Source: Escherichia coli
Lineage (GTDB): Bacteria; Pseudomonadota; Gammaproteobacteria; Enterobacterales; Enterobacteriaceae
Assembly (NCBI RefSeq): GCF_003334405.1
Contig: NZ_QOWM01000012.1
Length of the DNA: 64,000 nucleotides
Direction: 5' to 3' (one strand)
In this document: piece by piece, positions 18,516 to 49,500 of the stretch
Layout: every line of letters starts with the position of its first letter
How positions within the stretch are numbered: the first letter of the stretch is position 1
Position numbers and translations under genes: made by a program
The notes under the pieces: model-generated
The model's database searches: none
What the model was told of the DNA's origin: nothing
What the model saw: the letters and a program-made list of their open reading frames with translations, nothing else

Positions 18516-19009
18516 TACGCCCCCACGTAATTCCCTGACAGATACCACTCATCACTCGATACAGCGCGCTTGCTGCTTTTCCGTAAACACTGCTCACGAC
18601 GCGCCAGAAAATTGTTTCGTTCTGGCTGGGAGTGGCTTTCACGGAATGCCACCATCCACACCGTTGCAGCACGACGGTATAAGCCCCTGGACTCCAGTTC
18701 TTCAGCCTGGCGGGTCAGGCACAAAATCTCCCGCTGGTCGTTAGTGCCGACATAGAAATTGCGCACAGGTCTGGTTTCACGAACTGGTTGCGGTTCCGCC
18801 TCCTGCGCTCTCTCAGTCAGGCGCGGGAAATGTCTGCGTGTATCCCCTTCACAACGGTGAGCCACACGACCACTCTGACGTAACTTGCTTGCTGACTGCA
18901 GAACGCGCTGCCGTGAGTAACCTGCAAAAGCATCCGCAATGTCTCCGGAAGTACACCCCGGATGGGCTTCAATGAATTTCTGAACGTCATTCAAAAGACT
19001 CATAATCAC
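18515..19009 (-). CDS. PerC/Pch-like regulator homolog
   Basis: 164-aa ORF; LESRGLYRRAATVWMVAFRESHSQPERNNFLARREQCL resembles the PerC-family core. Confidence 0.5.
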   Translation of the reverse strand: MIMSLLNDVQKFIEAHPGCTSGDIADAFAGYSRQRVLQSASKLRQSGRVAHRCEGDTRRHFPRLTERAQEAEPQPVRETRPVRNFYVGTNDQREILCLTRQAEELESRGLYRRAATVWMVAFRESHSQPERNNFLARREQCLRKSSKRAVSSDEWYLSGNYVGA

Positions 19010-19947
19010 CCCCTGAATCCTGCCGGGATCTGGCTGTAGTCCACGTTGTCGTAACTGGCTTTGAAGTACGGGTCTTCGCGTTTTTCGGTGTACGTGCTGA
19101 CGGACGGCGTTAAGCGCAGGGAAAGCTCATCCCATTTTTCCCGCAGCTTCGACGGGCTGAGCACGTTACGGCACCAGAACGGATCGCGACTGACGCGGCT
19201 GTACATCTCGCAGATTTGTTTATGAGTACGACCATCCTGCACACACATCAGGCGAATTTCGTTTGCCCAGGCTGTCCAGTTCGGTTCTTTGGGACGAACC
19301 ACCTCGCCGTCACATTCGGCGGCATGCTCGTACAGGGCGATGATTTTTTTCCAGAGCCACTGTGCGCAGGTCAAATCATCCTGCGTTCCCCACTGGCGCT
19401 TTTTAGGGCTGAATACAACCGCATCAGGATGGCGAGTTAAAAACTCCTGTTCAGCCGTCTGCGTGTCCGGTTGCGAAGCGTCCGGACGAGAAGTTTTTTT
19501 ATCTGACGGATCATGTTTTGATTTTACTGACGGATCCCCGCCAGATTCTGACGGGTGAAAACCCGCTTTTTTGCCAGATTTCGACGCATCAAATTTTGAC
19601 GGGTCAGATTTTGATGCGTCAGATTTTGACGGGTCAGAATCTGACAGTTGAGAAAATGCCGCTGCCTGAAGCTTCGCAACGTTAAGCTGATAAACATTCG
19701 ACGCATTGCGGTTACCCTGGCGACGCGCCTTACGCGTTAACCAACCTTCTGCTTCCAGCCGTGCGATAGCCGTCCTGACGGTACTCATCCCCGCGCCAAT
19801 CTGACGGGCAATGGTTTCAATTGATGGCCAGCACACACCTTCGTCATTACTGAAATCAGCCAGGCGGGCCATAATTGCCACGCTGGATAATTTCATGCCT
19901 GACGCTGCGCAACCATCCCATACATAGCCGGTTAATTTAGTGCTCAT
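19006..19947 (-). CDS. Replication initiation protein (O-like replisome organiser) containing the ori iterons
   Basis: 313-aa ORF; N-terminal HTH region; internal peptide repeat SDPSKSDASKSDPSKFDASKSG encoded by DNA direct repeats. Confidence 0.7.
   Translation of the reverse strand: MSTKLTGYVWDGCAASGMKLSSVAIMARLADFSNDEGVCWPSIETIARQIGAGMSTVRTAIARLEAEGWLTRKARRQGNRNASNVYQLNVAKLQAAAFSQLSDSDPSKSDASKSDPSKFDASKSGKKAGFHPSESGGDPSVKSKHDPSDKKTSRPDASQPDTQTAEQEFLTRHPDAVVFSPKKRQWGTQDDLTCAQWLWKKIIALYEHAAECDGEVVRPKEPNWTAWANEIRLMCVQDGRTHKQICEMYSRVSRDPFWCRNVLSPSKLREKWDELSLRLTPSVSTYTEKREDPYFKASYDNVDYSQIPAGFRG
19520..19660. repeat. Iteron-like direct repeats (putative phage ori) inside the replication gene
   Basis: Repeated units tttgacgggtcagattttgatgcgtcagattttgacgggtcagaatctgac and variants. 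Confidence 0.5.
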
Positions 19948-19956
19948 GACCGACCT

Positions 19957-20295
19957 CTATTTCCCTGAATTTACGACGAAACTGTTCGAGCGGACTGAAG
20001 CACTCATGCTCATAGCCTTCGCGGAGGTAGATAACCCGTTGTGTTTCCGGTTCCCAACGAATGACTCTGACGGGCACTCCGTAGTGATCTTTGAACCAGC
20101 GGTTAACTTGTCGCAAAGGACTGTCTCCTTCTGCCGGTTGAAATCCCCCACAGCCCACTCTGCAAAGCTGTGGGTTACAATTTCCCTGTCACCTGGTACA
20201 TTCACTGCATAGCAATACTCCACCTTCGCTTTTCCACCCGGTACAGGAAGCGCAATCAGTTGCGAGCGACGGTAGTGTGTTGTTAAACTGTTCAT
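19957..20295 (-). CDS. Hypothetical phage protein
   Basis: 112-aa ORF whose ATG overlaps the upstream stop as ATGA; an alternative 73-aa ORF at 19937..20158 in another frame cannot be excluded. Confidence 0.35.
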
Positions 20296-20855
20296 GCGTT
20301 AGTTTCTCCACAGTCACGACACGCCACGGCGCCCGGAGCTGCACACTCGCGGGCGTCACTACTTTCTGAAACGCAAAAGATTTTGTAGACCAGTGCTGCA
20401 TGCTCCTGCAGCTTCGAAATTGAGAGGTACAGCTCGTCGTTAATTGCTGTCTTCTCATGCGGTTCCACTACACCGTCTTCAATTGCTGAACGAATCTGTT
20501 TTGAATAACTGCCGATCTGTTCAATGACCTCCAGCAGGCGTTGGTTGATATCGGCGTTGTCCACATCCTCGACATCAGGAAGAGACACAAAAACGCCATT
20601 TGCAGACTGCGCCACAGCGTCAGCAATGAAGTGAGTTCCACCAGCACGTTGCAAAATCATTGCCCATCCCAGCGGGAAAATCTGATCGCCATCGGCACGA
20701 AGGCGGTTAAATAATGCGTTCTCTGTTACATCCAGCCAGTCAGCCGCTTCAGCGTAACCACCCGGCAACGCCGCGATAGTTTTTCTGACAGCTTTCACGT
20801 ACCACTCAGGCTGTTTTTCTATTTTCCAGTGATGCTTACCCACGATTAGCCTCAT
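20292..20855 (-). CDS. YdaT-like phage protein
   Basis: 187-aa ORF immediately downstream of the Cro-like gene, the same arrangement as racR-ydaS-ydaT in the Rac prophage. Confidence 0.55.
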
Positions 20856-21177: not shown

Positions 21178-21852
21178 ATGAAAACAATCCATGACATCCG
21201 GCGGTCTAACGCCAGAAAACTGAGAGATGGTGTTGGCGGGAATTCTTCCTTTGCCACTATGATTGATCGCGAGCCAACCCAAACCAGCAGGTTTATGGGA
21301 GATGGTGCTACTAAAAATATCGGTGACAGCATGGCACGACACATCGAAAAATGTTTCGACCTGCCTGTCGGATGGCTCGATCAAGAACACCAGACAACGA
21401 ACATCACAAAAAAACCTGATGTTTCAATCACTAATAAACAAATCACATTAGTCCCTGTCATATCATGGGTACAGGCCGGAGCATGGAAAGAAGTTGGATA
21501 TTCTGAGGTTGATTTGAGCACAGCAGAAACGTATCCCTGCCCTGTACCCTGTGGGGAAATGACTTATATCTTGCGGGTGATAGGTGATTCAATGATTGAT
21601 GAGTACCGCCCGGGAGACATGATTTTTGTCGATCCTGAAGTACCTGCCTGCCACGGTGACGACGTTATTGCATTGATGCACGATACAGGTGAAACCACCT
21701 TCAAAAGGTTGATAGAAGATGGGACACAGCGTTATCTCAAAGCGTTAAACCCAAACTGGCCTGAGCCTTACATTAAGATCAACGGTAATTGCTCTATAAT
21801 TGGTACTGTGATTTTCTCAGGAAAACCAAGAAGATACAAAATCAAAGCTTAA
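21178..21852 (+). CDS. CI-like prophage repressor with LexA-type S24 autopeptidase domain
   Basis: 224-aa ORF; C-terminal half has the S24 Ser/Lys dyad context (VIGDSMIDEY ... TFKRL). Confidence 0.8.
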   Translation: MKTIHDIRRSNARKLRDGVGGNSSFATMIDREPTQTSRFMGDGATKNIGDSMARHIEKCFDLPVGWLDQEHQTTNITKKPDVSITNKQITLVPVISWVQAGAWKEVGYSEVDLSTAETYPCPVPCGEMTYILRVIGDSMIDEYRPGDMIFVDPEVPACHGDDVIALMHDTGETTFKRLIEDGTQRYLKALNPNWPEPYIKINGNCSIIGTVIFSGKPRRYKIKA

Positions 21853-25841: not shown

Positions 25842-25917
25842 ATGGTGCCGATAATAGGAGTCGAACCTACGACCTTCGCATTACGAATGCGCTGCTCTAC
25901 CAACTGAGCTATATCGG
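25842..25917 (-). tRNA. thrW: tRNA-Thr (anticodon CGU)
   Basis: Minus-strand read GCCGATATAGCTCAGTTGGTAGAGCAGCGCATTCGTAATGCGAAGGTCGTAGGTTCGACTCCTATTATCGGCACCA; coordinates +/-1. Confidence 0.9.
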
Positions 25918-26032
25918 CCCTGAAAGGACATGTTCACGAACGTGAATCACGGTGGACAAGGTTAAAACTAACCGGGCGATGCGTCAATGGCCTTGTGAAT
26001 CAAATGGCTACTTTTGCATCACCCGGTTTTAT

Positions 26033-43484: not shown

Positions 43485-43590
43485 CTGCCTGATGCGCTGC
43501 GCTTATCAGGCCTACAAGGTTTCTGCAATATATTGAATTTGCAATATTTTGTAGGCCGGATAAGGCGTTCACGCCGCATCCGGCAAGTCC
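43485..43590. repeat. REP elements between lafB and lafA
   Basis: cctgatgcgctgcgcttatcaggcctac ... gtaggccggataaggcgttcacgccgcatccggcaag. Confidence 0.7.

Positions 43591-49274: not shown

Positions 49275-49500
<226 letters not shown>

Follow-up and report, generated by a model that had tools for sequence, protein, structure and literature searches.

A probable lambda-like intragenic replication origin of variant type in the single-gene replication module of an Escherichia coli prophage, and a DnaT-like tail on its initiator

In this study, we analyzed the replication region of a lambdoid prophage in a 64,000-nucleotide stretch of Escherichia coli DNA (RefSeq assembly GCF_003334405.1, contig NZ_QOWM01000012.1; hereafter the window), where tandem repeats lie inside the gene for an O-like replication initiator. 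Comparison of this gene with its relatives indicated that the repeats and the block flanking them are very likely the replication origin of the phage, intragenic, lambda-like and of a variant type. The best explanation as a whole, in which the segment 19465-19644 is the vegetative origin of lambdoid prophages of the SfIV/SfII/e14/CPS-53 type and initiation follows the route proposed below, also appears likely. In addition, the initiator ends in a peptide shared with the host primosomal protein DnaT, which raises a more tentative proposal about how such phages might recruit the host helicase without a loader gene of their own.

Repeats within the initiator gene and selection on their DNA

The initiator has 313 amino acids and matched the PHROGs family phrog_391, 'replication initiation O-like' (1.7e-134). 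In Pfam, amino acids 23-70 matched the HTH_36 winged helix, GntR/MarR-type matches were obtained as well, and the RefSeq name is only 'helix-turn-helix domain-containing protein'. Six copies of TCARAATCTGAC are present at 19540-19644, five of them with 15-bp spacing, and the cores occupy 19633-19644, 19618-19629, 19603-19614, 19588-19599, 19573-19584 and 19540-19551. On the coding (minus) strand the unit reads TCA-AAA-TCT-GAC-NNN and encodes S-K-S-D-x; the translation of the open reading frame 19006-19947(-) contains SDPSKSDASKSDPSKFDASKSG, and gattttgacgggtcaga represents two adjacent units in reverse complement. The initial annotation of this DNA, which had described direct repeats that lie inside an O-like gene and translate to a peptide repeat, was thus right in both respects, as the PHROGs match and the 30-35% identity of the C-terminal domain to the O proteins of lambda and 434 also show. 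Each core forms an 11-bp near-palindrome, TCAGA-W-TCTGA, and inverted repeats were found there by the repeat search. Tandem Repeats Finder reported 19575-19638 with a period of 15 nucleotides (4.3 copies, 81% matches; 88% for a 30-nucleotide period), and a separate repeat search recovered the same 15-nucleotide family plus a copy at 19539-19561. When at most one mismatch to TCARAATCTGAC was allowed, five matches were found in the 64-kb window against 0.31 expected, all within 19540-19645; none of 100 shuffles reached five, and no second cluster of the motif was found in the window. The number of copies shifts in steps of 15 nucleotides, from 4-7 in E. coli prophages to 8 in phage 733R5 and 9 in the Klebsiella protein P0047.

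We gathered homologues from Citrobacter (phiNP), Yersinia (YeP3), Klebsiella (1 LV-2017 and KpnBHU6) and E. coli (Eeyore, 733R5, phiP27 and Stx2_KH16-043), among others, and compared synonymous sites in codons for identical residues in 21 pairs of seven diverged homologues, setting the N-terminal domain against the linker (amino acids 101-150). In every one of the 21 pairs, synonymous differences were far more frequent in the N-terminal domain (50-68%) than in the linker (5-27%); for the window gene and phiNP, the counts were 43 of 81 and 2 of 42, respectively (p=2e-8). Synonymous sites of the linker are therefore 3-10 times more conserved than those of the adjacent DNA-binding domain. The two Ser codons of the repeat are fixed as TCA and TCT, which are minor Ser codons in E. 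coli. Moreover, one TCAGAATCTGRM copy in phiP27 and KH16-043 lies in another reading frame and encodes TLQNL; conservation thus applies to the DNA and not to the peptide. The only peptide residue that varies freely (P/A/T/G) is the one encoded by the 3-nucleotide spacer between cores. Judged by these codon comparisons, the whole block is under constraint at the DNA level, and the SKSDx peptide repeat would be a by-product, with a linker predicted to be disordered tolerating whatever the DNA sites dictate. In 80 viral-contig loci collected by an N-terminal alignment scan, diversity did not clearly drop at the putative origin; these sequences are nearly identical to one another (99-100% in the N-terminus) and are informative for copy-number polymorphism only.

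The repeats were found to change together with the N-terminal domain. Type A and phiP27 combine the helix STVRTAI and the wing GNRNxSN with the iteron TCAGAWTCTGA, type B has STVKSAI and GGRNVSN with TCAAC-N-GTTGA, type C has STVIxLI and GQRSTSN with CCAGAWTCTGG, and the iteron of type D is TCAGAATTTGA; the 15-bp spacing is retained in all four types. Absence of the repeats from homologous genes, which the initial annotation had named as speaking against an origin, was not observed: homologues with the same N-terminal type all carry the repeats, and those of other types carry a different repeat at the same place. The type B protein P0035 is 79% identical to the window protein overall, and its C-terminal half is a close match by eye. 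Since each type has its own repeat, including type B on a window-like C-terminal half, the N-terminal domain and the repeats appear to form one travelling specificity module. In phiNP, YeP3 and phiP27, the N-terminal domain and the linker are indeed swapped as one mosaic module. Modules of this kind, in which the N-terminal domain and its iterons determine specificity together, are well established for the O proteins of lambda, 434, 21 and phi80.

Likeness to ori-lambda and alternatives to an origin

The AlphaFold model divides the initiator into two folded domains joined by a linker. The N-terminal domain was modelled as H-H-H-H-strand-strand with a predicted local distance difference test score (pLDDT) of 70-88, and its Foldseek matches were winged-helix proteins of the MarR/ArsR type. 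Amino acids 102-161, between the two domains, are predicted to be disordered (pLDDT<50), and this linker holds the whole putative origin. The C-terminal domain showed about 35% identity to the O proteins of lambda, 933W and 434 by tblastn, and BLASTP against lambda and 434 O gave E=6e-26 with 30% identity over 216 columns. No homology to the N-terminal part of lambda O was detected: Pfam gave no Phage_rep_O match, and BLASTP aligned nothing in residues 1-69. Sequence and fold searches of PDB with the whole protein returned generic winged-helix repressors only, the C-terminal domain being without any match.

Just beyond the iterons lies a candidate unwinding element, with GATCCGTCAG repeats at 19527-19536 and 19503-19512. 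Of all 40-mers in the gene, the least stable (gene nucleotides 420-459, window 19489-19528) begins 12 nucleotides past the last iteron and reaches -46.2 kcal/mol against a mean of -57.1 kcal/mol, a difference of 3.4 standard deviations; its A-rich strand is the coding strand, as in lambda. The codons GAT-CCG-TCA-GTA of this element are invariant across N-terminal types A-D, so that the element is independent of the iteron type. Two of the four GATC sites of the gene lie within it. Conservation ends just past the G+C-rich inverted repeat that follows, where relatives switch to other C-terminal domains, which marks a mosaic junction. A Dam-type methylase gene follows the initiator within one to three genes in SfII, phiNP, YeP3, Klebsiella phage 1 LV-2017, 733R5 and SfV, directly adjacent to it in phiNP, Klebsiella phage 1 LV-2017 and 733R5, and SfIV and the window are without one. 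The invariant GATC sites and the nearby methylase genes suggest a possible link of initiation to methylation or SeqA.

This arrangement resembles ori-lambda in several ways. As in lambda, 434 and 933W, the putative origin is part of the initiator's own coding sequence, at the place where the linker between the DNA-binding and C-terminal domains is encoded; the four annotated O-binding sites of phage 434 are at gene nucleotides 349-433, and the sites of the window gene are at 304-408. Tandem sites with dyad symmetry are followed by an unwinding region that is A-rich on the coding strand, in equal order and polarity. The gene also occupies the same place as in lambda, in the early-right operon after cro- and cII-like genes, its C-terminal domain is homologous (30-35% identity), and the N-terminal domain and iterons are likewise exchanged as one specificity module. 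On the other hand, the N-terminal domain differs from that of lambda O in being an HTH_36 winged helix, and the A+T-rich part differs in containing two conserved GATC repeats. The suggestion of the initial annotation that these are lambda-type iterons within an O-like gene is therefore well supported by the selection on the DNA and by the position of the sites.

We propose that the N-terminal domain would bind the iterons, with a dimer probably occupying each palindrome, and that a nucleoprotein array would result; the region would be crossed by transcription that starts at the early-right promoter, and the adjacent A+T-rich/GATC element would melt. The lambda-O-like C-terminal domain and the DnaT-like tail might then link the complex to the DnaT-dependent primosome step of the host, so that host DnaB could be loaded there. 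Possible partners of the C-terminal domain or the tail are DnaB-DnaC, PriA or DnaT itself. If correct, a defined 180-bp fragment would become usable for ori plasmids, for incompatibility typing of prophages and for tests of replication-dependent toxin or O-antigen expression. In the literature searched, we found no description of an origin for this initiator gene, that search not extending to Weigel and Seitz (2006), which may list predicted origins of the SfV type; the SfIV genome paper has no discussion of an origin.

Several observations weigh against an origin of this type. The A+T-rich element is short and modest (about 70% A+T), weaker than that of lambda, and there is no DnaA box (TTWTNCACA) between 19 and 20 kb. 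The sites measure 11-13 bp at 15-bp spacing (1.4 helical turns) in 5+1 copies, compared with 18-19 bp at 20-24 bp in 4-6 copies in lambda, and therefore the nucleoprotein geometry may differ from that of lambda. Furthermore, prophages of Salmonella and Klebsiella commonly carry in-frame deletion variants with about 1-3 iterons (P0031, P0029 and P0064), of which P0031 occurs on 128 contigs; such copies may be defective, or a small number of sites may be enough.

Two other readings of the repeats were considered. They could be a low-complexity, slippage-prone protein linker, whose DNA repeat is a side effect with no role in cis. The predicted disorder of the segment, a copy number that varies from 4 to 9 in 15-nucleotide steps, as slippage would give, and the SKSDx peptide that is recognisable across several genera all accord with this. 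However, it would not account for synonymous sites far more conserved than those of the flanking folded domain, for the fixed rare Ser codons, for a DNA motif that phiP27 and KH16-043 keep in another frame with another peptide, or for the exact match between the variable residue and the non-conserved spacer, and a peptide repeat has no need of palindromic units; we regard this reading as very improbable. Alternatively, the sites might be regulatory, serving autorepression, handcuffing copy control or a roadblock to early-right transcription, with the origin elsewhere or with replication mainly dependent on recombination. Iterons of plasmids also serve control, the A+T-rich element is weak, and the O-only phage LLS, which is Chi-rich, grows better with RecBCD (PMC12315714), pointing to heavy use of recombination-dependent replication. 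Against this stand the order of iterons, A+T-rich and G+C-rich parts and their position in the gene, which copy ori-lambda and ori-434, the lack of a second motif cluster in 64 kb, and a GATC/A-rich element whose independence of type fits an unwinding element rather than an operator. Late recombination-dependent replication would also leave lambdoid phages in need of an early theta origin, as is the case in lambda itself. A purely regulatory role thus seems improbable, and a replication origin is the reading that we prefer.

A promoter scan found nothing in the repeats. Known families give no support to a reading as RNA, since Rfam returned no match in this region. At 19552-19565 (+), antisense to the replication gene and between iterons 5 and 6, CGGGTGAAAACCCG and the T run after it resemble a terminator hairpin; it was rejected as functional because the hairpin is not conserved in relatives, in which only the A and T tracts are kept.

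The loader-less module and the DnaT-like tail

In the window, the initiator is followed by PerC-like, LexA-DNA-binding-domain, RusA, KilA-N and DUF968/HNH genes, and no P-, DnaC- or DnaB-like gene is among them; this absence had been noted in the initial annotation, which took it as a sign either of decay or of a different dependency on host factors. Neither a helicase nor a loader nor a primase is encoded in the whole genome of SfIV or in that of SfII, and the same one-gene module occurs in SfII, SfV, phiNP, Klebsiella phage 1 LV-2017, Eeyore, 733R5, cdtI, mEp390 and Stx2a_WGPS2. The PerC-like downstream gene was considered as a hidden loader and rejected, because it is absent after the replication gene in phiNP, Klebsiella phage 1 LV-2017, Eeyore, 733R5 and cdtI. 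According to a recent survey, 34 of 314 lambdoid phages of Enterobacterales (about 11%) are O-only, and their replication 'is not yet understood' (Genome Res 2025, PMC12315714). The window module is like these phages, of which LLS is one, in having one O homologue and no helicase or loader, and mEp460_4F5, ST64B and phiNP, which are named in that paper, match the window or carry the same tail; the paper makes no mention of an origin, of iterons or of a DnaT-like tail in O-only phages (PMC12315714).

In comparison with lambda, the window module has no P gene, and its initiator ends in ...IPxGFRG in place of ...NTDWIYGVDL of lambda O. The loader-less initiators examined, with the exception of YeP3, share the tail consensus [FY]xxxYxxVD[YT]x[IVL]PxGFR[GST], commonly ...VDYSxIPxGFRG, which besides the window is found at loci L003, L006, L088, L094, L098, L100, L102 and L105-L108. 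It sits on three different C-terminal domains (lambda-O-like, Phg_2220_C and the unassigned SfV type). The same peptide forms the extreme C-terminus of E. coli DnaT, whose sequence was verified against PDB 9zbt_D, and it is invariant in the DnaT proteins of 11 enterobacterial genera. The tail of P0104, QRCVNHISEPDTEIPPGFRG (ending ...ISEPDTEIPPGFRG), is identical to amino acids 160-179 of E. coli DnaT at 14 of 20 positions (E=1e-7), and the end of the window tail, ...VDYSQIPAGFRG, fits the DnaT C-terminus D-x-x-I-P-x-G-F-R-G. Several annotation pipelines name these phage proteins 'primosomal protein I'. No mention of a DnaT-like tail in O-only phages was found in the literature searched.

The tail and phage-encoded loaders exclude each other among the loci compared: 16 have the tail and no loader, none has both, 6 have a loader and no tail, and one has neither (Fisher p=7e-5). 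This exclusivity holds in two independent families of C-terminal domains. For example, phiP27 and KH16-043 have no tail and possess DnaC-like and DnaB-like genes, and SI8 and Min27 have no tail and possess a primase-helicase. Two Pantoea prophage initiators that are 74% identical to the window protein end in DLDFDNTDWIYG... (lambda-O-type NTDWIYG) and are followed by a Phage_lambda_P gene; the tail of lambda and 434 O is ...DLTNTDWIYGVDL. The PxGFR peptide is kept through synonymous codons (Arg as AGG, CGC, AGA or CGG, Phe as TTC or TTT, and Gly), also before unrelated downstream genes.

Based on these patterns, we tentatively suggest that the tail links the origin-bound initiator to the host primosome by docking. 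With somewhat greater reserve, the ...D-x-x-IP-x-GFRG peptide could be a portable docking signal for host helicase delivery (through DnaB-DnaC, PriA or a DnaT filament), which loader-less lambdoid phages took over from DnaT, or DnaT from them, and which came to replace the P or dnaC-type gene on no fewer than three C-terminal domains unrelated to one another. If true, the docking signal would explain the replication of O-only lambdoid phages, and the C-terminal tail of DnaT, not only its N-terminal domain, would hand over to DnaB/DnaC. The finding of this tail on loader-less initiators, and of the lambda-O tail where a P gene is present, connects the question of O-only replication with that of recruitment by DnaT. 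The loader-less design therefore belongs to a recognised but unexplained class, for which the DnaT-like tail may be a concrete, testable explanation.

Other explanations of the missing loader and of the tail have to be set beside this proposal. Decay of the module, with its loader lost and the prophage unable to replicate, might be read from the early region of the window, which has no loader gene, and from K-12, which has truncated copies of the gene (CPS-53 yfdO). However, absence of the loader is not decay, because viable phages carry the same loader-less module: the arrangement is shared by the plaque-forming or inducible phages SfIV, SfII, SfV, cdtI, mEp390, mEp460 and the PhiR phages, and O-only phages make up the sizeable class cited above (34 of 314; PMC12315714). 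The window gene is also intact, with 99.4% identity to the SfIV replication protein, and viable complete phages match the window over its first 25 kb, head and tail genes included. Decay is accordingly scarcely credible, and it was the wrong part of the earlier interpretation; its second part, a different host-factor dependency, is favored and can be extended by the tail, which host DnaT has as well and which was not seen together with loader genes of the phages. It is also conceivable that the origin is read correctly and the tail has nothing to do with helicase delivery, being a degradation tag, an oligomerisation element or simply the codons of the next gene's ribosome-binding site. The last codons of the window gene, GGA TTC AGG GGG TGA, do constitute a Shine-Dalgarno sequence for the overlapping PerC-like gene, and the only reported effect of amino acids 154-179 of DnaT is a higher cooperativity of single-stranded DNA binding (PMC4132743). 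Nevertheless, the tail is not merely a ribosome-binding site, because its peptide is kept through synonymous changes and before unrelated genes; the mutual exclusion with loader or helicase genes in two independent C-domain families, and the invariance of the peptide in DnaT, are likewise at odds with an unrelated function, which we consider rather unlikely.

The docking proposal has evidence against it as well. The loci in the tail-loader count are not phylogenetically independent, and YeP3, the sole exception to the rule, has neither the tail nor a recognisable loader downstream. The profile match to DnaT is weak past the last ~13-20 residues (hhalign aligned only the last 13 columns), with a probability of 14-18% for the phage C-terminal domain against that of DnaT, and a 2026 paper on the preprimosome favors the N-terminal domain of DnaT for recruitment of DnaB/DnaC (PMC13377028). 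The same paper states that how DnaT recruits DnaB/DnaC 'remains unknown' (PMC13377028). No match to a DnaT domain (PF17948 or NCBIfam DnaT) was found in the window initiator in Pfam or NCBIfam. A search with a 30-column tail profile retrieved mostly fragments or chimeras of the same phage proteins and an unrelated eukaryote-like repeat protein, and DnaT was not retrieved. Homology to DnaT beyond the tail is thus not supported by these sequence searches. As a separate observation, the YeP3 initiator (locus L004, 3076-4017) has type-A iterons and a C-terminal extension of roughly 90 amino acids that replaces the tail.

Comparison with other systems places the window initiator between several known types. 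It shares with E. coli DnaT the extreme C-terminal peptide, whereas it lacks the DnaT N-terminal domain and shows little or no similarity ahead of the tail; moreover, DnaT acts at forks recognised by PriA and not at a sequence-specific origin. The DopC/DopE pair of Cellvibrionales and Oceanospirillales, a domesticated pair resembling lambda O and P, also links an HTH_36-type O-like protein to a C-terminal element of DnaT (PMC5509034). Unlike the window initiator, DopC is chromosomal, is paired with the P-like DopE, has the DnaT C-terminal domain (2ru8-like) and not just the tail, and shows no detectable iterons (PMC5509034). Iteron plasmids offer a third comparison, since they too have a winged-helix initiator and tandem iterons beside an A+T-rich element and encode no loader; their origins, however, are intergenic, usually with DnaA boxes and a need for DnaA, whereas the putative origin in the window is intragenic with no DnaA box nearby. 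The Rep proteins of such plasmids (RepA of pSC101, pi of R6K and TrfA of RK2) use host DnaB-DnaC directly.

Feature map and genomic context

The early-right region of the prophage corresponds to 16-24 kb of the window, on the minus strand, and its features are listed in Table 1.

Table 1. Features of the replication module and its surroundings in the window
Feature	Position	Strand	Evidence or remark
cI-like repressor	21178-21852	+	
cro	about 20.9-21.1 kb		within the minus-strand early-right region
YmfL/cII-like gene	20292-20855		within the minus-strand early-right region
Small open reading frame region	19937-20295	-	just upstream of the replication gene
O-like replication initiator gene, 313 amino acids, the only replication gene of the module	19006-19947	-	open reading frame, phrog_391, Pfam, SfIV identity
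N-terminal winged-helix DNA-binding domain, amino acids 1-98, presumed iteron reader	19654-19947	-	Pfam, AlphaFold model, Foldseek
Five tandem iterons, 15-bp spacing, core TCARAWTYTGA, encoding (SKSDx)n	19573-19644	-	
Spacer GGCAAAAAAGCGGGTTTTCAC, A6 tract and T4 tract, possibly a bend	19552-19572	-	A/T tracts kept in alignment
Sixth iteron TCAGAATCTGGC, 33 bp from the fifth, best-conserved copy among relatives	19540-19551	-	
A+T-rich candidate unwinding element; an A-rich run comes after each of its two GATCCGTCAG repeats, which are spaced 24 bp apart	19489-19536	-	
G+C-rich inverted repeat GTCCGG-N11-CCGGAC, closing the conserved block	19465-19487	-	
C-terminal helical domain, amino acids 162-278, homologous to the lambda O C-terminal (P-binding) domain	19114-19464	-	tblastn, BLASTP, model pLDDT about 90
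C-terminal tail REDPYFKASYDNVDYSQIPAGFRG, DnaT-like peptide	19009-19080	-	matches the DnaT C-terminus; anticorrelated with loader genes

Over the 2.4 kb surrounding the repeats, identity is 98.6% to SfIV, a viable phage of Shigella; SfII and several phages of E. coli reach about 97%. The initiator gene was present at 80% coverage or more in 1576 of 5426 complete E. coli genomes (about 29%), and it occurs also in serotype-converting phages of Shigella and in some Stx phages. In K-12 MG1655, the CPS-53 pseudogene beside yfdN (locus L097, 3002-3710) is a 5'-truncated, frameshifted copy of it that matches query nucleotides 234-942, with the iterons and the A+T-rich block kept and most of the DNA-binding domain gone.

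Upstream of the initiator, the region 19937-20295 (-) contains two overlapping open reading frames on the same strand, both with family support: the first, of 112 amino acids, belongs to phrog_1170 and is annotated in SfIV and SfII, and the second, assigned to DUF4222/phrog_1343, has 60 amino acids according to the Prokaryotic Genome Annotation Pipeline, the choice between the two differing from pipeline to pipeline. A tRNA-Thr(CGT) gene at 25843-25918 (-), a few kilobases past the repressor and early-left side of the prophage, is a likely integration target. Finally, Rfam small-RNA matches were obtained for naRNA4 (CssrE) at 49347-49424 (-) and ES036 (CssrF) at 43508-43550 (-), both of which lie outside the early region of the prophage and are unrelated to the origin.

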